A program made the position numbers and the translations under genes. A stretch of DNA of 28,098 nt from an uncultured Planctomycetaceae bacterium (lineage in GTDB: Bacteria > Planctomycetota > Phycisphaerae > SM23-33). The stretch is from NCBI GenBank assembly GCA_964646065.1, contig CAZYDC010000001.1, positions 1 to 28,098 on the forward strand, read 5' to 3'. Below the pieces are notes generated by a model that was not told the DNA's origin, made no database searches, and saw nothing but the letters and a program-made list of their open reading frames with translations. Positions within the stretch are counted from its first letter, which is position 1. Every line of letters starts with the position of its first letter. Shown here piece after piece: positions 2,266 through 27,325 of the stretch.

Positions 2266-2752
2266 GTGAGCCGAATGGTGACGATGTTGGTGGGGGGGGA
2301 TGATGTTCACGCACGTGAATTCGCGGACCTTTACGCAGGATCGAGACGAAGGCAAGCGATCGCGGGGCGATTTAGGCCTCGGCGCCGACAGGCCCAGGCC
2401 ATTGGACAGACTGCTTACGGAACTCAATCTGACCGAGGACCAGCGGAAGCAGGTCGGGCAGATCGTAGATACACACCGTCAGGCCACGGAGAACCGGCGG
2501 AAAGAGAACCAGGCCACGCTCAGGGACCTCAACAAGCAACTGGATGACGCCACGGAATCCGGCGACAAGGACAAGATCAAGGCGGCCGGCCAAGCCGTCG
2601 AGAAGATCGATCCGTCGCGAAAGGCCGAGCAGGAAAACGTGATCAAGCAACTCAAGGACGTGCTCACGCCCGACCAGTCGGAGAAGGCCAAGAAGTTCAT
2701 GGAAGAACGCGAGCGCCTTGGTGATCGGGGGCCGGGCGAAGCAGGATTGTGA
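2266..2752 (+). CDS. Spy/CpxP-family (LTxxQ) helical periplasmic protein, apparently frameshifted at the G8 tract (2292-2299); intact downstream frame 2300-2752
   Basis: Two LTxxQ motifs (LNLTEDQRKQ, VLTPDQSEK). SD GGAGA at 2256-2260 precedes GTG 2266. Removing one G joins MSRMVTMLVGG to MMFTHVNS..., giving a signal-peptide-like N-terminus. Confidence 0.72.
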
Positions 2753-2762
2753 AGATTGCCGG

Positions 2763-2798
2763 CGGTGGTCGTCGGCGAGAGGTCATATGGGAAATGTC
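2763..2798 (+). promoter_or_regulatory. Conserved 36-bp leader motif, copy A
   Basis: CGGTGGTCGTCGGCGAGAGGTCATATGGGAAATGTC; 31/36 identical to 12773-12808 and 32/36 to the minus-strand copy at 18325-18359. Confidence 0.7.
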
Positions 2799-2856
2799 GG
2801 GTCTTATGATTTGGGTGCGGCGAATTATTTGATATCGCAAGAGCGGACAGCGGACT

Positions 2857-5941: not shown

Positions 5942-6133
5942 GCGTTCACTGCCAATGAGGCTAATGGCTGCGTTCGCCGCAGTTCTATCCCGATTGCCGC
6001 CTGTACGGATCTGCGCGGGATGCGGCCCGAAGAGCCCGTCCCTGCTACCGCGCCCAGCCACCACAGAGGATCCTAGCCCGCAAATTACCGGTTTTCGGGG
6101 GAAACACAATAGTTTGTCTCAAAAACCGTTAAG

Positions 6134-6260
6134 ATTCCCCGGAAAACTGTGGATATTTTCCTTGATCGTCTCTCCGGGCAAGGGCAACATGACCGTTGGT
6201 TTCAGGTCGCGTAGCCTGATAAAGGGCCAGGTCGGGCAAGGACTCGTTCCATCCGGCCCC
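6134..6260 (+). ncRNA. Unassigned promoter plus structured 5' leader element, copy 1 (upstream of HU)
   Basis: Aligns end to end with 26059-26186. Contains TTGATC-17-CAACAT, hairpin TCAGG/CCTGA (6202-6219), and stem GGGCC/GGCCC (6224-6259) enclosing the invariant CAGGTCGGGCAAGGACTCGTTCC. Confidence 0.6.
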
Positions 6261-6304
6261 GCTAGGTGCGAACGTTTTTGGACCATTTTAGAAGGAGCGC
6301 AAGA

Positions 6305-6613
6305 ATGGCAAAGGCACTGACGAAGTCGGAAATCGTTGCAAAATTGGCCGAGTGTGGCGAACTTCAGAAGAAACAGGTCGCGTGCGTGCTGGAAGGCCTT
6401 GGCTGCCTGATCAAGGCGGCCTTGGGCAAGAAAGGTCCGGGCTTGTTCGTGGTGCCCGGCCTGATGAAGATCACCGTCGTTCAGAAGCCGGCGGTTCCCG
6501 CCCACAAGGGAATCAACCCCTTCACGAAGGAACAGCAGATGTTCAAGGCGAAACCCGCCCGAAAAGTCGTCAAGGTCCGCCCGCTGAAGGCCCTCAAGGA
6601 CATGGCGAAGTAA
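6305..6613 (+). CDS. hup: HU-family histone-like DNA-binding protein
   Basis: SD GAAGGAG; MAKALTKSEIVAKLAE...FVVPGLMKITVVQKPAVPAHKGINPFTKE...KVVKVRPLKALKD matches the HU/IHF fold pattern. Confidence 0.92.
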   Translation: MAKALTKSEIVAKLAECGELQKKQVACVLEGLGCLIKAALGKKGPGLFVVPGLMKITVVQKPAVPAHKGINPFTKEQQMFKAKPARKVVKVRPLKALKDMAK

Positions 6614-6641: not shown

Positions 6642-6673
6642 GAAACCGCCCCGAAAAGGGCGGTTTCTTTATT
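6642..6673 (+). terminator. Rho-independent terminator after HU
   Basis: Perfect 10-bp stem GAAACCGCCC/GGGCGGTTTC, loop CGAAAA, followed by TTTATT; lies between convergent genes. Confidence 0.8.
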
Positions 6674-9321: not shown

Positions 9322-9472
9322 CGGTGATCCTTTCAGCGAGAACGGCCAAGCCAACGTTTTTTCCGTTTCCTGGTGGCGACCAGCCGTTCGCATGGTTTCC
9401 ATAACTTTACACTGCTTTGGCGTAGCCACAAGCAGATTACCCCTATGGTCCTGAGGGGTTCATCTTCTATTA

Positions 9473-9493
9473 GCGGGTCACTGCGGGTCACTG
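9473..9493. promoter_or_regulatory. Tandem 10-bp direct repeat in the divergent promoter region
   Basis: GCGGGTCACT x2, immediately upstream of a TTGGCG-18-TAAGAT promoter candidate (9496-9525). Confidence 0.45.
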
Positions 9494-9641
9494 TCTTGGC
9501 GGGCAGGCCCGAACATGGTTAAGATACCCGCCTGCGGATGCTGAGCCGGTAGAGAAACATCCGATCCGGTGATGAAAATGGCGTGGGTTGAGGGCGTCTG
9601 CAGAAACCGCCTTGCGGCGGCACTACGAACAAGGAGAACGA

Positions 9642-11720
9642 ATGCTGGCGAGACTAGGTCGATTGGCGGTCCCGGCGACGGGAATGGCGTTTCACTACTA
9701 CCACAAGCAGGCGCGATCCTCGCAGCGGGATCAACTCCGCCAGATCAAGGACCTGGGGTTTGACGTCATTCAGACGGAGGAATCCCCGGTCGCGCCCGGC
9801 AGTCCGTCCGGGCCGCTGGACCCGGTGATCGCCTGGAACCACATCGAGATCGGCAAGGACAAGTACGATTGGGGCTTCCTGGACCGCCTCGTGGAGGACT
9901 GCGAAGCGGTCGGCCTGAAGCTTTTCCACGACATCGAACTGGTGCATCACCTGCCGACCTGGGTGGCCCGGAAGTATCCGGGCACCGAGTGGGTTTACCC
10001 TACAGGCGAGACACTGGGATTTTACCACCGCCGGTTCTGCTATGCGGATTACCACATGCGATGCTTCAGCATGGCCCATCCTGCCTGCCGAGCGGCGGCC
10101 GCTGACTTCATGCACAAGGTGGCCCATCGATACGCCGCATCTCCGGCGGTGGTGGGCTACATTCTTTTCGAGGAGATCGGCCTGAACTATCCGCACGACC
10201 TGACCTGGTACGGTCAGGATGTGGGTCCGGCCACGGTGGCGGGTTTCCGCGAATATCTCGAGAAGGAATATGGCACGCTGGCGAATCTCAATCGGCGGTA
10301 CGAGAGGAAGTACCGCGATTTCAAGGCGGCGGCTTCGGATCGCACGATTTTCGACGCGCACCCCAGGCCGCATCGCGGGTGGATGGACTGGTGCTACTAT
10401 CGCGCCCAGTACGTGTCCAGGTTCTTCCGCGACGCCCGCGACGCGGTCAAGCAGGCCGACCCCCAGGCCGTCATGGTCGCCTCGGGGGCCGACGCCTACG
10501 AAAGCTACTGGATCGTCCAGGGCTTCCGCGACGAGTCCGCGCCGTTCTTCGACATCATGCCGCACAAACTCGGCCCGGAGGCGGGGAGGCAGGACGTCGT
10601 CCGAAACTATTTCTCCAACAACACCCGGTCGGCCGTCGGCCTGAGCAACCTCAACGGCGGAACGCTCAACGACCAAATGCCCGCGCACGACATCGCCCGC
10701 AAGATGTTCGCCGCCCTGGGCATGGCCTGCCGGTGGACATCGCTGTACGCGTGGCATTGGTACTCGCACGACGACCCAAAAACCGGAAAGCGAATCCTGC
10801 ATGAAAACCTGCGGGGGCTGCTGCCCTATGTGCGATGGATCGCGCCGCGGCGCGAACTGTTCGGCAATCTCCGCCCAGCGGACGCCCAGGTCGCCGTCCT
10901 CAAGCCCGAACGGTCCGACGCCGTTAATTTCTGGCAGTACATGGCTCACGACCCGCGGATTCTTCGCAAAAGCCATTCCTGGCCCAGCCTTTTCACGCAG
11001 GCGGGCTGCCGCATCAAGTCGTTTCTGACCGATGCGAACATCCCCATCAACGTCTTTGCCGAGGAACGCCTCGCCGAGGAACTCGCATCGGGGCAGTATC
11101 GCATGTTGCTCCTGATCGACTCCCATCTGACGGCCAACACCGCGCAGGCCATTCGCGACTGGGTAGACAAAGGCGGAAAACTCCTGCTGACGCCGGGCGC
11201 CGGAAGGTACGACGAGGCCGGGAATCCCAGGGGATACTTCGACGATCTGATTCGCCATTGCAATTATCTGTCGCTTTTGCATCGGGATTTTGGCGGCTGG
11301 AAAGAAGACGGCCGGTTCCCTATGGATGCCGAGGTCGTGATGCTGGAGGCGCCGTCGTCCCTTCAGTTGCCGCCGTTGATGAAATGGGCGGGTATCCAAC
11401 AGGCATTGGAATTCGAGGGCGACTTGCGGCCCGAAGACCCGGATTTCGAGGTCGGCACCAATGACTTCCATCCCGGCGCCGGCCTTTGGCAGGGGCGGAT
11501 CAGCGTCTACCCGCTGACGAATCCCGACGGGCAAACCGTCTACATTCTGGTCCAAAAGGGAACGGACGTCCAGCCGCTTAAGGAGGTTCCGGTGGTCTGG
11601 TCCGGCGGGCCGGTGCGTGTGCTGCGGCCGCCATCGCCCCGATCCGTTCGGGTCCTGCCGGCCAAGGGCAAGCTGGTGTTGCCGGCCTGGCGAGATGTCC
11701 TTATCATGGTCCCGGAATAG
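9642..11720 (+). CDS. GH42-like (clan GH-A) beta-galactosidase-family protein with trimerisation domain; atypical catalytic motifs
   Basis: SD AAGGAG before ATG 9642. AWNHIEIGKDKYDWGFLDRLVE, LANLNRRY and YRMLLL...WVDKGGKLLLTPGAGRYDE resemble GH42; no signal peptide. Confidence 0.75.
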   Translation: MLARLGRLAVPATGMAFHYYHKQARSSQRDQLRQIKDLGFDVIQTEESPVAPGSPSGPLDPVIAWNHIEIGKDKYDWGFLDRLVEDCEAVGLKLFHDIELVHHLPTWVARKYPGTEWVYPTGETLGFYHRRFCYADYHMRCFSMAHPACRAAAADFMHKVAHRYAASPAVVGYILFEEIGLNYPHDLTWYGQDVGPATVAGFREYLEKEYGTLANLNRRYERKYRDFKAAASDRTIFDAHPRPHRGWMDWCYYRAQYVSRFFRDARDAVKQADPQAVMVASGADAYESYWIVQGFRDESAPFFDIMPHKLGPEAGRQDVVRNYFSNNTRSAVGLSNLNGGTLNDQMPAHDIARKMFAALGMACRWTSLYAWHWYSHDDPKTGKRILHENLRGLLPYVRWIAPRRELFGNLRPADAQVAVLKPERSDAVNFWQYMAHDPRILRKSHSWPSLFTQAGCRIKSFLTDANIPINVFAEERLAEELASGQYRMLLLIDSHLTANTAQAIRDWVDKGGKLLLTPGAGRYDEAGNPRGYFDDLIRHCNYLSLLHRDFGGWKEDGRFPMDAEVVMLEAPSSLQLPPLMKWAGIQQALEFEGDLRPEDPDFEVGTNDFHPGAGLWQGRISVYPLTNPDGQTVYILVQKGTDVQPLKEVPVVWSGGPVRVLRPPSPRSVRVLPAKGKLVLPAWRDVLIMVPE

Positions 11721-11732
11721 CGAGCCGCGACC

Positions 11733-11950
11733 GGTAGGAAGCGGAAAGGAACAGGGTGCCACGTCCAGGTCTGCGCGAACATCCGCAATCCGCGCCTGAT
11801 ACACCGGGCCATGGCGTTTCAGCAGGACAACATGAACCGCACGCTCGACTCGTACCAGGATCTCGATGTGCTGAGCATCAACACCGCACCCGAGGATCAC
11901 TTCCTTATGGGCGGAGCCCGGCCTTACAGCAGGTCGATGATCCACTTGAG
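11733..11950 (+). pseudogene. Headless coding-like fragment of an unknown enzyme
   Basis: Open frame HVQVCANIRNPRLIHRAMAFQQDNMNRTLDSYQDLDVLSINT has coding-like codon usage but no convincing start or family motif. Confidence 0.3.
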
Positions 11951-12118
11951 GGTCCAGAAATACTCCCGCAACCTGCGTTGCACCCCGGGGAGTCCTCTGT
12001 ATCGCTGCTTTGAGTCCCTCCCGTGTAATCTCGATCGAGTTGTGTTTGTCGTCCTCGATTCGAGCCCAGACCTTGTCGGCCGCCGCACGTCCTGTCCCCG
12101 ACATGACGACTGCCGATT

Positions 12119-12374
12119 ATGCGATAAACCCGTTCGATTGGCCATATCGCGATCTTTCTTGAACTATGGCTTCCCTTGTCTGCGGGATGGTGTTTCTGGG
12201 TTGCCCGGTCCAGCAGGCCAATCCGACATCGCTGCCGGCGGGGGACATCGAAGTGTACTTCTCCCCAAGGGCGGCCGCACGGACGCCGTTGTGAGGGCGC
12301 TGGCGGACGCCAAACAAACCGTTTACGTCCAGGCCTATTCCTTCGCATCGGCCCCAATGGCCAAGGCCCTCGTT
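12119..12374 (+). pseudogene. Truncated, frameshifted phospholipase-D-family (Nuc-like) nuclease
   Basis: ..FLGC lipobox-like segment, then DIEVYFSP | frameshift near 12262-12266 | KGGRTDAVVRALADAKQTVYVQAYSFASAPMAKALV, the characteristic Nuc N-terminus; cut off before any HKD motif. Confidence 0.8.
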
Positions 12375-12663
12375 GTGCGGTCCGTTCGCAGCAGCGGGGA
12401 GATCAAGTGGCAAGGACAACGGATGTATCTGGGGGAAGTGTTGGCCGACGAGAACGTCGGACTGGAGCCGATCATGGAGGGTGGCTGGTGTACTTTTGCA
12501 AGATGCCGCTTGGGGTGCTGGACGATCGGCGGGGAAAGGTGTGGACGTTGGAGGCGGCGATACGGAAGGGCTGGTTATCGGCGGACGCTCTGCCCGCCTC
12601 CTTCCGCCGCGCTCCATGGACCGGGCAGAGCGTGGATGTGTAAACAAGGTTCCCGGTTGCACA
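12375..12663 (+). mobile_element. IS481-family insertion sequence remnant (transposase C-terminus and right end)
   Basis: VRSVRSSGEIKWQGQRMYLGEVLADENVGLEPI | frameshift | WLVYFCKMPLGVLDDRR resembles the IS481 transposase tail; terminal-repeat-like TGTAAACAAGGTTCCCGGTTGCACA ends in ACA at 12663. Confidence 0.75.
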
Positions 12664-12772
12664 AGATGCTCTAACTCAAATCCTCCAGTGCCATCCTTTG
12701 CGGAATCGCTGAGGACATGGGCGAAACATGTAATATCACGCCCAAGTCCGGTAGAATCGTGCACAACGTCGA

Positions 12773-12808
12773 CGGTGGTCGGCAACGAGAGTTTATATGG
12801 GAAATGTC
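12773..12808 (+). promoter_or_regulatory. Conserved 36-bp leader motif, copy B
   Basis: CGGTGGTCGGCAACGAGAGTTTATATGGGAAATGTC; TAGAAT (12752-12757) lies 15 nt upstream. Confidence 0.7.
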
Positions 12809-12841
12809 AGTTCGGAGTTCCGGCCATCGGAGACCCAGAAG

Positions 12842-15800
12842 ATGAAACGACAAACGAACAACTACGTGCGGGGAATCGCGGGAATACTTCTGGCGTTGGC
12901 TACGATTGGAGGATGCGCCCCGGAACCGAAGTGCTTTGAAGTGGACGACGTTTTTCTGGCGCACGCGCCGACATTTGAACCGGGCCGGTTCGGTCAGGCG
13001 GTGCGCGATCCGCTGGCGGGACACGGCGGCCTGTTCTTGTGGTATCCCAGCGTCCTGCCGGAAGAAGGAACTTTTTCCGGGTGGGTCAAACCGGAGGCCG
13101 GGCTGGGATGGGGGCCGCTGTTTCCGCATATTCAGACGGACACGGCGCTGGGCGGGAAACCGGATTACGGGTTGGAGGTCAATCCCGACTGGCTGGGGCT
13201 GGCGATTCAGGGCCAGCGGCCGGACAAGCTCACGACGGACGCCCAAGAGCGATTCGGAGTCGGCCGGCATTTGAAGATTCGCCAGTGGAACCACATCGCG
13301 GCAACCTTCGGGCCACAGGAGACGAAGGTGTACGTCAACGGGGAACTGGCCGCGACAGGTCCGGGTATTGCGCTGCGGGGCAACCCGGGGCGCGACTACC
13401 TGAGCCTGGTGACGGACCTCATGCAGATCCATGCCCCGGGGCTCCTGGACGAATTCATCCTGTTCAACCGGGTGCTGCCGGCCCAAGAGGTTCAGGCACT
13501 GTACAGGCGAACCGAGCCCTACCCGGAAGGACAGGACACGGTGGCCATCTGGCGGTTCGACGGCGACACACGAATGCGATTGCCCAAACAGGCAAGGGCA
13601 ACCGGCGGCTCGCTGTTCTACCGCACTGGCAGTGCGTACAGCCTCTTCCGCGACGAGCGGGGGGTGGCGATCAAGATGAATGTCATCAACTGGAACGCCC
13701 AGCCGGTGGAATGGACGGTGAGGCTCAAGGTGGACGACATGCACCGCAACCGGGTGTATGACAAGACCCTCCCGGTCAGTCTTGCCGCCCGCAGCCAGAA
13801 GCAGTGGTCGCAGAAGTTCGAGGGATTGGCCAACGGCATGTTCTATGGCACGTTCGAGCTGGCGGCCAAAGACGGAACGGTGCTGGACCGGCGGGGCTCG
13901 ATCTTCGGCAAGACGCTGGCGCCGGACCGGATGAAGATTACCCAGGACGCGCGGTTCCAGGTCGGGGCCGAGGCCGCCACGTACTGCAACTGGCCGGACA
14001 ACGGCATGACGTTCACGCTGATGCGCCAGTCCAACTGGGCCGACGTCGAACCGGAACAAGGAAAATGGTCTTGGGCCATCCTGGACGCCTTTGTGAAACA
14101 AGCGAGGGCGGAAAACATTCACTTTGTCTTCGGATCGGCGAGCTGTCCGCTCTGGGCGGTGAAGGAAGGCGCCACATGGGCATCGGGTAATTGGGAGATG
14201 GTCCCCCAAAACCCCCAGGGCTTTTCGACCTACGTGGAGGCGCTGGCCCGTCGTTACAAGGGGCAGGTCGAAACCTTCGAGGTGTGCAACGAGCCGGGCT
14301 ACCTGACGCCGACGGAATACGCCGACTTTGTCGCTCGGGCCAAGCGGGCGATACAAACGGCGGGCGCGGACATCAAGGTGATCGCCGGTTTCCATTCCAG
14401 TCAGCAATGGCTGGACCAGATGGTCGTAAAGACCAAAGGCTCGATGGATATCCTCAGCACGCACCCCTACTGCTGCCTGACCCTGGAAAATGAAAAGGAC
14501 GTCTATCCCACCTACCTGAAAATGCTGCCACACGTGCGATCTCTGGGCATGACCGGCCCGTGGTGGGCCACCGAGGTAGGCAACTGGGGCGGCCACTTGC
14601 GGGCCGACGGCTATCCGATGACGCGGGAGGACGAACGGCGGTTCCGCGGCGAAACGCCGGCGCGGCGAGAACAGTCGCTGGAGTATTTCAATTCGCAGGA
14701 AGACCTGGCCAACATGGCCGTCCGGTCCATGCTGGTGAGTTTTGCCTCCGGAGTGGAACGGTACAGTTGGCATTACTACAGGGCGTTGAGTTCGTGCGAC
14801 TGCATCGCCGACTACCACCTGCTGGCGTTCGGGAACGTCGTTGGGCTGCTGACCGGAGGCGAGTTCGTCCGGCAACTGGACCTGGGCGGCGACGACCTGT
14901 GGGCCTTCCAATTCCGCAACAAGGGCCGGACGATCATCGCGTATTGGCAGGCGGCCAAGGCCCCCGCGCCCCGCAAGGCGCACTTCAAGGTGAACACGGC
15001 GACGTATGCCCTGACCGACATCTACGGCAACAGCAAGGAATACAAGAGTCAGGAGGGTCTGGCCGAGGTGGAAGTGACCTCGGTGCCGCAATTCCTGCGG
15101 ACATCGGACACAGACATAACGGTGATCGAACCGGTGCTGGCGCTGCGCGGCGACGCGGTGATTATGCCCGGACAGGAGAGCAAAATTACGGCGACCATCC
15201 GCGATCCGCTGTCCAAAACGATAACGGGCAAGCTGACGTTGCATGCTCCGGCCGGTGTCACGCTGGCGCCCGCGGATTTCACGTTCGAGGCCGGGCCCGG
15301 CGAGGAAAGGAGCCTTCAGAGCACTCTGCTCGTTCCGCCAGGCCTGGGACTGATGGACAGGCAGATCCGTGCGGAAATCCAGACGGACCGCCTCGGTTCG
15401 CTGGAGCGGACGCTTGCGATGAACGTGCGGCAGTCCACCACGTGCGCGAAGCTGAACAAGGAAATCCGGATCGACGGAGACCTGGGCAAATGGGCGGATG
15501 TCCCGGCGATCCATCTGGACCGCAAGAGCCAGGTGATCGCCGGATCGGTGCGCCCCGAAGGAGACCCCAACCCGACGATGCTCTATGAGTGGGACGGGCC
15601 CCAAGACCTCAGCGGGATAGTCAGGACGGCATGGGATCCAACGAATCTGTACATGAGCGTCAAGGTGCGAAAAAAAGGCCGGATTCTGAACACGCCGCGC
15701 CAGCAACGGAGCACGGCGCTGTACGAGGGCGACTGCGTCGAGCTGTTCCTGGATTTTGAGCCCAGGGAAGGCAAAGGTTATGGGCCCAATACATGGCAAA

Positions 15801-16135
15801 TCTTCCTTGTACCGCCGACCGAGGATCACCCGACGGCCACTTGCAACGTGTTCCAGCCGGCGGCGAGGCAACTGGCGGGCATCGAGCTCGTGGGCAAGGT
15901 CGTGGAAGGCGGGTATGTGATCGAGGCGAAAATTCCGTGGTCGAACTTCGCGCCCTTTGCGCATGAGGCGGGTAAGGTTATCGGGTTCGACGTGGCCATT
16001 GACGACCAGGATAGCCCGGTCGAACAGGTTTACTCCGACGGCAAGGGGTTCCGCAAATGCCAGATCGGCTGGGGAGAAAACAAGAATTTCTCTGGAGACC
16101 GGAGCCAGTTCGGCCGGATGGTTCTTGGAAAGTAA
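12842..16135 (+). CDS. Multidomain lipoprotein glycoside hydrolase: LamG-like, GH39-like clan GH-A barrel, NEW3-like, CBM9-like
   Basis: Lipobox IGG-C; LamG motif WNHIAATF..KVYVNGEL..LDEFILFNRVL; acid/base VCNEP (14288-14296); nucleophile WATE (14573); CBM9-like IDGDLGKW..DLSGIVRTAWDPTNLY..GDCVELFLD..IEAKIPW..GFDVAIDDQD. Confidence 0.85.
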   Translation: MKRQTNNYVRGIAGILLALATIGGCAPEPKCFEVDDVFLAHAPTFEPGRFGQAVRDPLAGHGGLFLWYPSVLPEEGTFSGWVKPEAGLGWGPLFPHIQTDTALGGKPDYGLEVNPDWLGLAIQGQRPDKLTTDAQERFGVGRHLKIRQWNHIAATFGPQETKVYVNGELAATGPGIALRGNPGRDYLSLVTDLMQIHAPGLLDEFILFNRVLPAQEVQALYRRTEPYPEGQDTVAIWRFDGDTRMRLPKQARATGGSLFYRTGSAYSLFRDERGVAIKMNVINWNAQPVEWTVRLKVDDMHRNRVYDKTLPVSLAARSQKQWSQKFEGLANGMFYGTFELAAKDGTVLDRRGSIFGKTLAPDRMKITQDARFQVGAEAATYCNWPDNGMTFTLMRQSNWADVEPEQGKWSWAILDAFVKQARAENIHFVFGSASCPLWAVKEGATWASGNWEMVPQNPQGFSTYVEALARRYKGQVETFEVCNEPGYLTPTEYADFVARAKRAIQTAGADIKVIAGFHSSQQWLDQMVVKTKGSMDILSTHPYCCLTLENEKDVYPTYLKMLPHVRSLGMTGPWWATEVGNWGGHLRADGYPMTREDERRFRGETPARREQSLEYFNSQEDLANMAVRSMLVSFASGVERYSWHYYRALSSCDCIADYHLLAFGNVVGLLTGGEFVRQLDLGGDDLWAFQFRNKGRTIIAYWQAAKAPAPRKAHFKVNTATYALTDIYGNSKEYKSQEGLAEVEVTSVPQFLRTSDTDITVIEPVLALRGDAVIMPGQESKITATIRDPLSKTITGKLTLHAPAGVTLAPADFTFEAGPGEERSLQSTLLVPPGLGLMDRQIRAEIQTDRLGSLERTLAMNVRQSTTCAKLNKEIRIDGDLGKWADVPAIHLDRKSQVIAGSVRPEGDPNPTMLYEWDGPQDLSGIVRTAWDPTNLYMSVKVRKKGRILNTPRQQRSTALYEGDCVELFLDFEPREGKGYGPNTWQIFLVPPTEDHPTATCNVFQPAARQLAGIELVGKVVEGGYVIEAKIPWSNFAPFAHEAGKVIGFDVAIDDQDSPVEQVYSDGKGFRKCQIGWGENKNFSGDRSQFGRMVLGK

Positions 16136-18324: not shown

Positions 18325-18402
18325 GACTTTCCCGGATGACCTCTCGCTGACGACCACCGCCAGCAGTCTGTGTGATCTTACTTAGTTTTGGCGTTTCGAC
18401 AA
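18325..18402 (-). promoter_or_regulatory. sigma70-type promoter followed by the 36-bp leader motif, copy C
   Basis: Minus strand: TTGTCG (18397-18402), 16 nt, TAAGAT (18375-18380), 15 nt, CGGTGGTCGTCAGCGAGAGGTCATCCGGGAAAGTC (18359-18325). Confidence 0.7.
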
Positions 18403-23472: not shown

Positions 23473-25971
23473 TTAGGCATCAGTGCCATGTTCCTTTTTG
23501 CGGCCTACCAGCGGGAGCAGCAGGGCGATCACCGTAAAAGGCAACAAGGACAGGAGGTCTGCGTAGGGCCCTGCGAATAGCGGGTTGTTGTCGCTCGCCC
23601 AGGACTCAATGGTCCGGTTGACGTCACCCAGCACGCCGGCCATGACGGCGATGACGATGCCCGCAATGGCCCCGCCGGCGATATAGCCGGATGCCAACAG
23701 CACTCCCGGGCCTTGATCGCCATGGACTGTCGGCAAACCCTTCTCGTTCTTACGATGGAAGAAGTCCCCATCGACAAGGCGACGAATCAGCCCTCCCACG
23801 AAGATCGGTGAGGAAGCCGACAGGGGCAGGTATACGCCGACCGCGAAGGCCAGGGAAGGAATGCCGGCCAATTCCAATACCACCGCGATCATAACGCCCA
23901 GCAGCACAAGCCCCCAAGGCAACTGATGATTCAGGATGCCCTTGATAATGTAGGATACCAGGGTTGCCTTCGGGGAATCGTACTTCGTGACGGTCGAGCC
24001 GTCCGGCCGGGTGTCATGGACGCCATTGATACCAGGATCAACCAGGTAGACTGGCACGTCTTGTTCGTTTACCAGATATTTTCCGGCTGAACCGCCTTCG
24101 TTGTCGGTCTTTTGCCAGGTGCGGTAAGAACCGCTGTCCGATGACGCCTGCGGCCCCTGGAGTTGCTCGGCCGCGCCAAGCTCCGAAGAAGGCGCTCTCA
24201 GGTCCGGCAAGAAATTCCGTTCGAGCCGATAAGCAATGCGGCCGGAGTCGTCAACCAGGTACTGGCCTTTCTCCAGACCGCTGAGCGAGGGGCGCGTGGC
24301 GGGGGTCGAAAGGTCCAGCAAGTGGTAGGGGGTCTGGTCGGCCGGATTGAAGCCGCTTTTCCATGGTGGCAGCCGCCGCACATCCTGTGTATCCAGAGCA
24401 GGAGCGGCCTTGGCCGGCGCGAAGGTGACGGCGGGCACGTAGACGGTCGAGGTTCTGTTGAGTTGCAACAAGACCGGCCCCATCACCAAGGCCGACGCCA
24501 AGGCGCCGACAAGAATCGCGATCTGCTGGTACCGAGGGGTGGCGCCCAGCAGGTAACCGGTTTTCAGGTCCTGCGAGGTCGCGCCGCCGTTGGAGGCGGC
24601 GATACAAACGATGGCTCCCACAGACAGCGCGGTGACGTAGTAGATCGGCCCGGTCCACCCGACCAGCAGGAAGATCAGGCATGTCAGCAACAGTGTTGCG
24701 ACGGTCATGCCGGAGATGGGGTTGGAGGATGACCCGATCTCACCGGTCAGGCGGGAGGATACCGTCACAAACAGGAAGCCAAACGCGATGATCAGGACCG
24801 CCCCCAGCACATTCATGTGCAATGTCCGAAACAGGACAATCGCGGCCGTCAGCAGCACGATGCCGCCGATGACAAATCGCATCGAAAGATCGCGGTCTGT
24901 TCGCAGGGCACCGGCGCCGCCGCGCTTGGCTTGGAGGTCCTGCAATCCACGCCTGAGGCTGCTCCAGATGATCGGCAGGGAGCGGAACAGACTGATGATT
25001 CCACCGGCGGCAACCGCTCCAGCGCCGATGTAGAGGACATACGCGCCACGAACCTGGTTCGGGGGCATCTGGTCAATCGGGATCGTTCCCGGCGCCAGGG
25101 CTTGAGGCAGGCCCGCCCCGAAGAATTTGATCGCGGGGATGAGCACCAGATAGGCCAGCACCCCGCCGGCACACATGATGGAGGCGATCCTGGGACCGAT
25201 GATATAGCCCCCGCCCAGCAGTGCCGGCGAGACCTCCATGCCTATCGATCCGCCCGTCAGTGGGGGGCCAAAGAGTTTCTGTGGGATGCTCTTCCAGCCC
25301 TTGAGCACCTCCATCAAGACCACGTAGGCAGCGCCGATCCCAAACCCCATGAAGACCGTCCTGCCTCCGGAGTCTGTCGAATCTGCGACGGAGGGGGCTG
25401 CGTGATGGGTAGTGGCGGCCACCTTGGACTCCTCCGAAGCGCCGGCCTTGAGAACTTCCGCGCAGGCGGTTCCTTCGGGATACTTCAGCACCCTGTGCTG
25501 GCGGACGATCAGGGCCCGACGAAGCGGGATCATCATCAAGATACCAAGGCATGCCCCCAGCACAGCCACCAGAAGGACCCGCGTGACCTCCAGGTCAAAA
25601 CCCAGGATCAGGATGGCGGGCATCGTGATCCCCACGCCAAAGGCGATCGACTCGCCGGCAGAACCGGCCGTCTGCACAATGTTGTGCTCCAGGATCGTCG
25701 CGTTTCGCAGACCGGCCTTGGAAAGGAGTCGAAAGAGCGTGATGGAGATCACCGCCACCGGAATGGACGCGCTGACCGTCATGCCCACCTTCAGGACCAG
25801 GTAAAGCGAAGAGGTTCCGAAGATCACGCCCAGCAGGGTTCCCACGATCAGCGGCAGGGGGGTGAACTCCCTGAGCCTGGCCTCGGGGGCGATATACGGC
25901 TGAAACCCTTGTTGGTCCGGCGGCTGCCATGGTTGTTCGCGGGCCGTGTCGGGTGGGTCTTTGATGGCCAT
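23473..25971 (-). CDS. OPT-family (OPT/YSL) oligopeptide / metal-chelate transporter with a large soluble insertion
   Basis: SD GGAGAG, ATG 25971; YLVLKVGMTVSASIP, NIVQTAGSAGES, KYPEGTACAEVL, SSNPISGMT, SQDLKTGYLLGATP, LLASGYIAGG motifs. Confidence 0.93.
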   Translation of the reverse strand: MAIKDPPDTAREQPWQPPDQQGFQPYIAPEARLREFTPLPLIVGTLLGVIFGTSSLYLVLKVGMTVSASIPVAVISITLFRLLSKAGLRNATILEHNIVQTAGSAGESIAFGVGITMPAILILGFDLEVTRVLLVAVLGACLGILMMIPLRRALIVRQHRVLKYPEGTACAEVLKAGASEESKVAATTHHAAPSVADSTDSGGRTVFMGFGIGAAYVVLMEVLKGWKSIPQKLFGPPLTGGSIGMEVSPALLGGGYIIGPRIASIMCAGGVLAYLVLIPAIKFFGAGLPQALAPGTIPIDQMPPNQVRGAYVLYIGAGAVAAGGIISLFRSLPIIWSSLRRGLQDLQAKRGGAGALRTDRDLSMRFVIGGIVLLTAAIVLFRTLHMNVLGAVLIIAFGFLFVTVSSRLTGEIGSSSNPISGMTVATLLLTCLIFLLVGWTGPIYYVTALSVGAIVCIAASNGGATSQDLKTGYLLGATPRYQQIAILVGALASALVMGPVLLQLNRTSTVYVPAVTFAPAKAAPALDTQDVRRLPPWKSGFNPADQTPYHLLDLSTPATRPSLSGLEKGQYLVDDSGRIAYRLERNFLPDLRAPSSELGAAEQLQGPQASSDSGSYRTWQKTDNEGGSAGKYLVNEQDVPVYLVDPGINGVHDTRPDGSTVTKYDSPKATLVSYIIKGILNHQLPWGLVLLGVMIAVVLELAGIPSLAFAVGVYLPLSASSPIFVGGLIRRLVDGDFFHRKNEKGLPTVHGDQGPGVLLASGYIAGGAIAGIVIAVMAGVLGDVNRTIESWASDNNPLFAGPYADLLSLLPFTVIALLLPLVGRKKEHGTDA

Positions 25972-26058: not shown

Positions 26059-26186
26059 ATACCCCTGGAGAACGGTGGATATTTCCTCTGATCACCCCTC
26101 TGGACAAGGGCAATATGACCATCTGTTTCAGGTCGTGTGGCCTGATAAGGGGTCAGGTCGGGCAAGGACTCGTTCCCTATGACCCT
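26059..26186 (+). ncRNA. Unassigned promoter plus structured 5' leader element, copy 2 (upstream of GH16)
   Basis: CTGATC-17-CAATAT, hairpin TCAGG/CCTGA (26128-26145), stem GGGTCA/TGACCC (26150-26185) around the same invariant 23-mer (26154-26176). Confidence 0.6.
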
Positions 26187-26285: not shown

Positions 26286-26310
26286 GGCTGCTGCTGACAG
26301 CAGCCCATTT
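26286..26310 (+). terminator. Possible attenuator/terminator hairpin in the GH16 leader
   Basis: Perfect 8-bp stem GGCTGCTG/CAGCAGCC, loop CTGA, but only a short CATTT tail. Confidence 0.35.
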
Positions 26311-26344
26311 ACAAGGTAGACTCATGTCTTCACAGGAGATCGTC

Positions 26345-27325
26345 ATGAATGTATCGAGAATAGCTGCGACAACATTGCCCCTGGGGGCGATCATCGCCGT
26401 CTGTTTCATCTCTTACCAGCCATCCTATGCGCAGGAAAAACCTTTGGATCATCCCATCGCTGCATCGCGGCCGGCTGAGTTGGCCCCGGTCAGCAATAGT
26501 CGTCCCGCCGCGGAACGTAAAGGCTGGCAGTTGGTCTGGTCGGACGAGTTCGACAACGAAGGCCTGCCCGACCCGAAGAAGTGGACCTACGAGGTTGGTT
26601 TCGTCCGCAATCAGGAGAAGCAGTACTACACGCAGGCTCGCAAGGAGAACGCCCGAGTGGAGCATGGCGTGCTGATCATCGAAGGCCGCAAGGAGCATTT
26701 CCCCAACGCCCAACATGATCCCAAGGCCAAGGACAACTGGCAGAAAGATCGCCCGAACGCGGATTACACGTCGTCGAGCATTACCACCGAAGGCAAGGCC
26801 TCGTGGACGTACGGCCGGATCGAGGTTCGGGCCAAGCTGCCGCAAGGCAAGGGTGTCTGGCCGGCGATCTGGACGCTGGGCACCAGCCGTTCGAAGATCG
26901 GCTGGCCACGGTGCGGGGAGATTGACATCATGGAGTTCGTCGGTCACACGCCGGACAAAGTGCATGGCACCGTACACTATGGACCGGACGGCAAGCACCT
27001 CAGCCAGGGCGACAAACTCACGATGGACAGGCCTTGGGAGGACTTCCACGTGTACGCCGTCGAGTGGGAGGCGGACCGGATCGAGTTCTACTTCGACGAC
27101 ACGAAGTACTTCACGTTCAAGACGGCGGCCGCCGATTCCGCCGGTTCCAACGCCTTCCGCCAGCCGCATTACCTGCTGCTGAACATGGCCTTGGGCGGCA
27201 GTTGGGGCGGCCATATCGACGACAGCATCCTTCCGCAGCGATTCGTGATCGATTACGTCCGGGTCTACCAGCGGCCTGGGAGCACTACGAAATCACAGCC
27301 TGTATTGGATTCGGGTCATCGTTAG
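26345..27325 (+). CDS. Secreted GH16 laminarinase/beta-glucanase-like protein
   Basis: SD AGGAG before ATG 26345, signal peptide (..PSYA/QEK), WSDEF, YGRIEVRAKLP, WPAIW and catalytic EIDIME (26918-26935). Confidence 0.93.
   Translation: MNVSRIAATTLPLGAIIAVCFISYQPSYAQEKPLDHPIAASRPAELAPVSNSRPAAERKGWQLVWSDEFDNEGLPDPKKWTYEVGFVRNQEKQYYTQARKENARVEHGVLIIEGRKEHFPNAQHDPKAKDNWQKDRPNADYTSSSITTEGKASWTYGRIEVRAKLPQGKGVWPAIWTLGTSRSKIGWPRCGEIDIMEFVGHTPDKVHGTVHYGPDGKHLSQGDKLTMDRPWEDFHVYAVEWEADRIEFYFDDTKYFTFKTAAADSAGSNAFRQPHYLLLNMALGGSWGGHIDDSILPQRFVIDYVRVYQRPGSTTKSQPVLDSGHR

Follow-up and report, generated by a model that had tools for sequence, protein, structure and literature searches.

Two stretches of about 127 bp in the genome of an uncultured Planctomycetaceae bacterium lie 20 kb apart in front of unrelated genes, and carry matching promoter hexamers, the same pair of hairpins and an identical run of 23 nt. 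An earlier note on this DNA, made from the sequence alone, took them for a candidate new riboswitch or cis-regulatory RNA. The question raised by this locus is what the element is, how its two copies are related, and whether it senses a ligand, binds a protein or serves only the expression of the gene that follows it. The window is the whole stretch of DNA that was analysed, 28,098 nt of contig CAZYDC010000001.1; it also lies within a JGI metagenome contig of 78.6 kb. The answer reached here is that the element has not been described before, yet is ordinary in kind. It is a clade-specific promoter and structured leader of an HU gene, together with one partial paralogous copy. A new class of riboswitch is not supported.

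The two copies and their promoter

Copy A (6134–6260, + strand) comprises the promoter and the first two-thirds of the leader of the HU gene. Copy B (26059–26186, + strand) is a partial duplicate containing the HU promoter and the two hairpins HP1 and HP2, located between an oligopeptide transporter (OPT) gene on the − strand and a GH16 gene on the + strand. The end-to-end alignment of the two stretches proposed earlier is confirmed. Positions 6137–6259 and 26063–26185 align without gaps with 100 identities in 123 positions (81%), and this pair is the top-scoring, and largest, direct repeat of the window. That the downstream genes are unrelated also holds; the HU and GH16 products belong to PF00216 and PF00722 respectively. 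The homology of the copies has sharp borders, ending at the limits given in the earlier note. Outside these the left flank of A aligns with that of B no better than shuffled sequence (976 of 2000 shuffles reach the score), and the same is true of the two right flanks (609 of 2000 shuffles).

The 23-mer CAGGTCGGGCAAGGACTCGTTCC occurs exactly twice in the window, at 6228–6250 and 26154–26176, and 0.00 matches to it are expected from shuffles, even with three mismatches permitted. If 23 mismatches fall at random among 123 positions, ~12% of trials contain an uninterrupted match of 23 nt or more, so the identity of the 23-mer between the copies is not significant alone. A third copy was found neither in the window (using a full-model, unfiltered covariance-model scan), nor in 20 kb of the adjoining contig, nor in ~170 kb of related loci. 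An exact scan of GTDB genomes with a 20-mer of the core gave one match only, within a gammaproteobacterial coding region, and a scan of JGI metagenomes with a 19-mer gave four matches with unlike flanks. All were judged to be chance matches, in collections that do not include the source contig. A scan of viral contigs with the HP1 consensus gave zero matches.

Orthologous HU loci were retrieved from other metagenomes through their HU proteins, providing five usable distinct upstream regions. These are L012, L015, L013, L017 and L018, with HU identities to the window of 83, 83, 78, 79 and 77% respectively; another locus, L014, encodes the same HU protein as L013. Together with copies A and B they constitute the seven sequences compared below.

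Starting at its 5′ side, copy A has an A-tract/T-tract inverted repeat on the + strand at 6141–6161. This is the GGAAAA-N9-TTTTCC palindrome that had been noticed before, with arms at 6141–6146 and 6156–6161; it is degenerate in copy B, and takes the form CGAAAAW-N7-WTTTTCG at the same place in the orthologues. It abuts the −35 hexamer, and may be an UP-element-like sequence or an operator. The −35 and −10 hexamers are those originally assigned, TTGATC (6162–6167) and CAACAT (6185–6190) on the + strand of copy A, and CTGATC (26088–26093) and CAATAT (26111–26116) on the + strand of copy B. All five orthologues have TTGACC or TTGACG at −35, and the −10 conforms to [CG]AA[CT]AT in all seven sequences. 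Both hexamers and their exact spacing of 17 nt are kept in seven out of seven while the sequence of the spacer varies, as expected of a sigma-70-type promoter (conserved hexamers separated by 17 ± 1 nt, with a varying spacer). A strict sigma-70 consensus scan of the window did not flag the copy A promoter, and this counts against the promoter part of the interpretation. On the comparative evidence the copy A region would be active as a promoter, with transcription predicted to start near 6197.

Fold and covariation of the leader

All seven sequences, folded singly, give both HP1 and HP2, and in six of them the fold of the + strand has greater stability than that of the − strand. HP1 extends from 6202 to 6219 on the + strand of copy A, with a stem formed by 6202–6207 and 6214–6219 and a loop of 6208–6213. 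It corresponds to the first hairpin of the earlier description (TCAGG-N8-CCTGA), and its counterpart in copy B is at 26128–26145. In single-sequence folding HP1 is predicted in seven of seven sequences, with 6–9 bp and a loop containing GUGU or UGU. The hairpin begins 8–10 nt past the −10 hexamer in every case, and is thus 1–4 nt from the start of the transcript if that is placed 7 nt after the −10. In both L017 and L018 HP1 is kept with a different stem sequence, using G-U pairs and a shifted register.

HP2 follows as a bulged hairpin at 6224–6259 (+ strand) in the minimum-free-energy fold of 6200–6262. In copy A it is built from an outer stem (6224–6228 with 6255–6259), a middle stem of GGU paired with AUC (6230–6232 with 6251–6253) and an inner stem of GGGC paired with GUUC (6234–6237 with 6246–6249) that includes two G-U pairs, closed by the 8-nt apical loop AAGGACUC (6238–6245), all on the + strand. 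The inner stem is GGGC/GCCC in L012 and L015. In copy B the hairpin occupies 26149–26186 on the + strand. A compensatory change in the outer stem, GGGCC/GGCCC in copy A and GGGTC/GACCC in copy B, had been pointed out from the two copies and is correct; the pair C6227–G6256 becomes U-A in copy B. The 23-nt core within this stem had been regarded as mostly unpaired. Instead it makes up the upper and mostly paired half of HP2, consisting of the middle and inner stems with the apical loop. The architecture of HP2 is predicted alike in all the orthologues, with bulges or internal loops in every sequence. The apical loop contains A-N-GGA in all seven, within the sequences AAGGAC, AAGGAG, AUGGAC, ACGGAA and AAGGAU.

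The covariance model R1, built from five close sequences, is too sequence-specific, scoring L018 at 12.7 bits and missing L017. A model-fitted alignment of the seven sequences was therefore unusable, and the structural alignment was made by hand. RNAalifold, applied to an unfitted MAFFT alignment, finds HP1 and HP2 again, and in 5 of 15 pairs both partners have changed. In the hand-made alignment 126 of 141 cells are standard base pairs, 19 of them G-U, and 7 of 21 pairs are double-changed. The paired count is reached by none of 2000 column shuffles and the number of double changes by 4 of 2000. Compensatory changes are found in four of eight outer-stem pairs of HP2 and in one of five inner-stem pairs. 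Read on the − strand, the same helices of the hand alignment have only 112 paired cells versus 126 on the + strand. The single-sequence thermodynamic z-scores of the window copies are modest, at −1.3 and −1.8. The evidence from covariation draws on only seven sequences, representing about four independent lineages, and its best figures come from the hand-fitted alignment.

Pairing specific to the + strand, covariation, the relative stability of the strands and the retention of HP1 in L017 and L018 together argue that this is a structure of the transcribed + strand RNA, and not a DNA operator. The comparisons support a structured RNA leader, with a two-hairpin fold that is conserved and covarying. 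The earlier proposal of a promoter followed by a structured leader is thus upheld, by the conserved hexamers and 17-nt spacing, the two-hairpin fold in seven of seven sequences and the + strand covariation.

Ancestry of copies A and B

Copy A and the five orthologous regions have in common the A/T inverted repeat, the −35, the 17-nt spacer, the −10 and a leader of 108–112 nt that ends in ACCAUUUU, GAAGGAG and AUG. In the window this 3′ part of the HU leader (6260–6304, + strand) is not duplicated; it contains ACCAUUUU and then the Shine–Dalgarno (SD) sequence AAGGAG at 6292–6297. The segments ACCATTTT and GAAGGAGC are kept in all the HU orthologues, including L010 (see below). The HU gene itself, identified by its translation and by PF00216, is located at 6305–6613 (+ strand) and encodes a DNA-binding protein of 102 aa with thousands of homologues, some of them assigned to Phycisphaerae and Tepidisphaerales. 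It is followed by a hairpin resembling an intrinsic terminator at 6642–6667 (+ strand), having a 10-bp stem and then TTTATT. Copy A thus has the HU gene on one side, and on the other a 379-aa gene (+ strand) of unknown function.

The left flank of copy A (6060–6133, with CGGTTTTCGGGGGAAAC and the bases around it) shows significant similarity to the corresponding flanks of four orthologues. Its score is reached by 0 of 1000 shuffles for L012, where the match sits at the same offset as in copy A, by 2 of 1000 for L015, 10 of 1000 for L017 and 11 of 1000 for L018. The left flank of copy B is unlike those of the HU orthologues. As the homology extends leftwards from A and not from B, copy A is taken as the ancestral HU upstream region and copy B as derived from its central 127 bp. 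Judged by these alignments, copy A, continued as far as 6304, is the native HU promoter and 5′ untranslated leader of a Phycisphaerae-like clade of Planctomycetota. The element is absent from two more distant HU loci, L016 and L019.

The neighbourhood of the HU gene differs in every relative examined. A phage-type integrase gene lies upstream of HU in L015 (1926–3293), and a tRNA gene is located ∼400 nt upstream in L014 (4–90, − strand). In L010 the HU gene is followed by genes for a DUF7192 protein, an AAA_5 ATPase and a DUF3987 protein (10414–15845), which are mobile-element-like.

Copy B is located between divergent genes. The OPT gene (23473–25971, − strand; gene call and PF03169) points away from it, and the GH16 β-glucanase gene (26345–27325, + strand) was assigned from its translation, PF00722 and homologues, with a likely start at 26345 after AGGAG and an alternative ATG at 26324. 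A promoter scan places a promoter-like site, CTGACA-17-TAGACT, proximal to GH16 at 26294–26322 (+ strand). Its −35 is overlapped by a GC-rich hairpin with a perfect 8-bp stem (GGCUGCUG-CUGA-CAGCAGCC, 26286–26305, + strand), with a predicted free energy of −14.8 kcal/mol and z = −3.5, that L020, a GH16 orthologue, does not have. Because its U-tract is weak this hairpin was not called in the terminator scan; it could nevertheless limit read-through from copy B.

Three GH16 orthologues (L020, L021 and L022; 79% identity) have neighbours different from those in the window, and the covariance model finds no match to copy B upstream of any of them. They retain the proximal TAGACT promoter region (GGTAGACT-SD-ATG), the counterpart of 26294–26322, and GGTAGACT with the SD region is conserved in L020, which is without copy B. 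It follows that copy B is not part of the conserved control region of GH16. Copy B has retained both hairpins, but 10% of random mutants of copy A at equal divergence fold as well or better, so that this retention is indistinguishable from chance. From its distribution copy B is a lineage-specific partial paralogous duplicate of 127 bp.

Upstream of the GH16 orthologue in L020 there is an insertion of ∼430 bp (9442–9867) bounded by 69-nt inverted repeats that are 99% complementary, with shorter ones nested inside. In this it resembles a MITE or small palindromic element.

The locus L010, from the same sample as L020, brings the two sides of the window together. Its HU is 92% identical to that of the window, and an OPT orthologue is directly upstream of the HU gene. 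The spacer between the two genes (180 nt, L010 9821–10000) is hybrid, joining sequence from the left flank of copy B to sequence from the right flank of copy A. Positions 4–123 of the spacer match the copy B left flank and the 5′ part of the element (92 of 109), while positions 124–180 match copy A at 6248–6304 (53 of 57). The equivalent of ∼6172–6247 (∼76 nt), which includes the −10, HP1 and the greater part of HP2, has been deleted between two TCCGG microhomologies. The spacer looks like a B/A recombinant that was deleted afterwards, and so like evidence of recombination between the copies. Despite the deletion the HU gene of L010 is intact, and the element is therefore dispensable in that lineage. 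The left junction of copy B is common to the window and L010, which places the duplication before the split of the two organisms.

Function of the leader

Our reading of the element, which we consider probable on the basis of the sequence comparisons, is a strong promoter with a stabilising 5′ leader like that of Bacillus subtilis hbs, and not a sensor. The A/T inverted repeat, −35, 17-nt spacer and −10 would form a sigma-70-type promoter with its start near 6197. The transcript would open almost at once with HP1, followed by HP2 with the SD-like A-N-GGA presented in its apical loop, and then by the conserved and presumably single-stranded ACCAUUUU stretch and the strong SD ahead of the start codon. 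HP1 and HP2 would mainly shield the 5′ end of a very abundant mRNA against 5′-end-dependent decay, and so act as a constitutive module for high expression and stability; the GGA loop perhaps holds a 30S subunit or a protein. Copy B, placed between OPT and GH16, would provide GH16 with a distal promoter and with the same leader, or alternatively may be a decaying relic. The stabilising role of the leader is proposed by analogy, and any activity of copy B is putative.

The analogy is with two kinds of stabiliser. [quoted passage not shown] A very strong SD ties the stability of this mRNA to translation initiation, and the 5′ structures shield it from 5′-to-3′ decay (PMC5737220). Like the hbs leader, that described here is long and structured, is located before the gene of an HU-type nucleoid protein and ends with a very strong SD. 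It differs in having no sequence or structural homology to hbs, in belonging to another phylum and in that stabilisation is putative here. We know of no duplication of the hbs leader before another gene. 5′-terminal stabilising stem-loops of the ompA type and STAB-SD stabilisers have been reviewed (PMC3997798). HP1 resembles the former, since only a few nucleotides separate it from the predicted 5′ end. HP2 resembles the latter in that it presents a sequence like AAGGAG a long way before the start codon, although in the loop of a hairpin rather than in single-stranded RNA. In ompA-type stabilisers the 5′ end is shielded by a hairpin placed as close to it as HP1 would be. We know of no mRNA decay data for any planctomycete, and to our knowledge almost nothing is known about promoters, leaders and mRNA decay signals in Planctomycetota, above all in the uncultured Phycisphaerae.

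The locus contributes a promoter architecture validated comparatively, i.e. a UP-like A/T inverted repeat, TTGACC, 17 nt and CAACAT. The conserved two-hairpin leader of a gene that is probably very highly expressed may be a useful part for planctomycete genetic tools, and copy B provides a natural example of a promoter-plus-leader module copied before an unrelated gene. The parallel with the hbs leader hints that HU mRNAs have repeatedly acquired protective leaders.

Besides the missed promoter call, the modest z-scores, the small set of sequences and the chance-level retention of the fold in copy B, two observations speak against the stabiliser. The conserved A-N-GGA and GUGU loops suggest recognition of specific sequences, which a passive role does not need, and the module is dispensable in at least one lineage, that of L010, where the HU gene has stayed intact after most of it was lost. 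The loop sequences lead to the main rival, which we regard as unlikely though worth weighing, that a dimer of a CsrA-type regulator bridges the GGA of the HP2 loop and that of the SD, so repressing or tuning HU translation, with GH16 under partial control of the same protein through copy B. CsrA typically recognises GGA-containing hairpin loops (PMC13443453), and CsrA with FliW has been reported in Planctomycetes (PMC4682653). As in CsrA/RsmA sites, one GGA is in the loop of a hairpin and another at the SD. The first is found in all seven sequences as A-N-GGA although the rest of the HP2 interior diverges; the second is ∼54 nt downstream of the HP2 loop, but it is trivially present, being merely the SD consensus. 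The loop motif could equally be an SD mimic, copy B is without the SD region, and the site is missing in L010. HP2 is also much longer and more irregular than the typical short CsrA hairpins, and binding here is putative. More generally, the HU leader might be an undescribed cis-regulatory RNA of the Phycisphaerae clade, responsive to a protein or (less likely) to a ligand, with the GGA-loop hairpin as its sensor; this too we regard as unlikely. Were it true, the 127-bp promoter-plus-leader would be a portable cassette by which a secreted GH16 glucanase has been recruited to the HU regulon. Still less probable is autoregulation, where HU would bind the bulged HP2 or the HP1–HP2 junction of its own mRNA, with feedback on translation or stability. 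In its favour, structured RNAs are bound by Escherichia coli HU, six of the seven sequences precede HU genes, and the HP2 helix is irregular throughout the set, interrupted by bulges and internal loops. Yet the positions of the bulges are not conserved, L010 does without the element, and the presence of copy B before the gene of a secreted glycosidase makes little sense for HU feedback.

The remaining explanations are all very unlikely. The A/T inverted repeat and the HP1 palindrome might be DNA operators for a dimeric transcription factor, the RNA fold being incidental. CGAAAAW-N7-WTTTTCG is conserved beside the −35, and HP1 is a near-perfect palindrome ∼10–30 nt downstream of the −10. But an operator would conserve sequence and not pairing, and the arms of HP1 change (CAGGUC/GRCCUG versus GGGCG/CGCYY) with pairing kept through G-U. 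Such pairs become C-A mismatches on the other strand, consistent with 126 versus 112 paired cells. The upstream inverted repeat as operator or UP element may well coexist with the promoter and stabilising leader that we favour. A riboswitch in which the conserved core of HP2 binds a small molecule and controls HU and GH16 we rate lower again. In its favour there is a conserved and covarying RNA structure within a 5′ UTR, with no known family to which it belongs, as originally suspected. Rfam 15, searched at the gathering threshold and at E ≤ 10, offers nothing relevant for the window, copy A or the orthologues. It gives no hits in the window, only a chance MIR781 match (E = 8.8) when 6050–6320 is searched, and only a tRNA in the orthologous loci. 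The leader resembles the cis-regulatory leaders and riboswitches of Rfam in its 5′ UTR position and its covarying stems, but lacks the conserved junction core of the riboswitches, and no expression platform was seen in it. The idea of a ligand bound by an invariant core is unsupported on several points. Of the 23 positions of the core, five or six are changed in L012 and L015; in L013, L017 and L018 nothing of it can be aligned beyond the GGCA...GGA loop motif. Its identity between the copies has P ∼0.12. There are two simple hairpins and no multi-helix junction. No orthologue has a U-tract after HP2, and full-leader folds give no conserved pairing to the SD, so that neither a conserved terminator nor an alternative fold sequestering the SD was found in these minimum-free-energy folds. 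The downstream genes (HU in six of seven, GH16 in one) have no common pathway, and the close relative L010 has deleted the element. A link to c-di-GMP had been suggested from a nearby cyclase gene, that of a 751-aa CBS-GGDEF-HD protein (gene call) running on the − strand from ∼2004 off the start of the window; nothing was found that connects this gene to the repeat. Least probable of all is that the repeat is a mobile or repetitive element of the MITE or REP type, or a leader-peptide attenuator. There are indeed two copies 20 kb apart with sharp borders. Many randomly oriented copies with terminal repeats and target duplications were looked for, and not found. There are two copies only, in the same orientation and both upstream of genes. 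Their borders show neither terminal inverted repeats nor a target-site duplication, ∼170 kb of this and related genomes contain no further copies, and other species have an orthologue of copy A upstream of their HU genes. The leader peptide, suggested by a short ATG frame in both copies and already considered the weaker alternative, is now refuted. Its ATG overlaps the −10, upstream of the predicted transcription start, and is replaced by ATT or ATA in L012, L017 and L018.

Another family of shared upstream sequences is present in the window, with the core GGCGGTGGTCGTCRGCGAGAGGTCATATGGGAAA. Its members are at 2743–2803 (+ strand), 12753–12813 (+ strand) and 18328–18369 (− strand), respectively located immediately 5′ of a 44-aa ORF followed by a 595-aa gene, of a 1112-aa Laminin_G_3/CBM9 gene, and of a 574-aa gene on the − strand. 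The family may be a common promoter or operator of a glycan-utilisation regulon.
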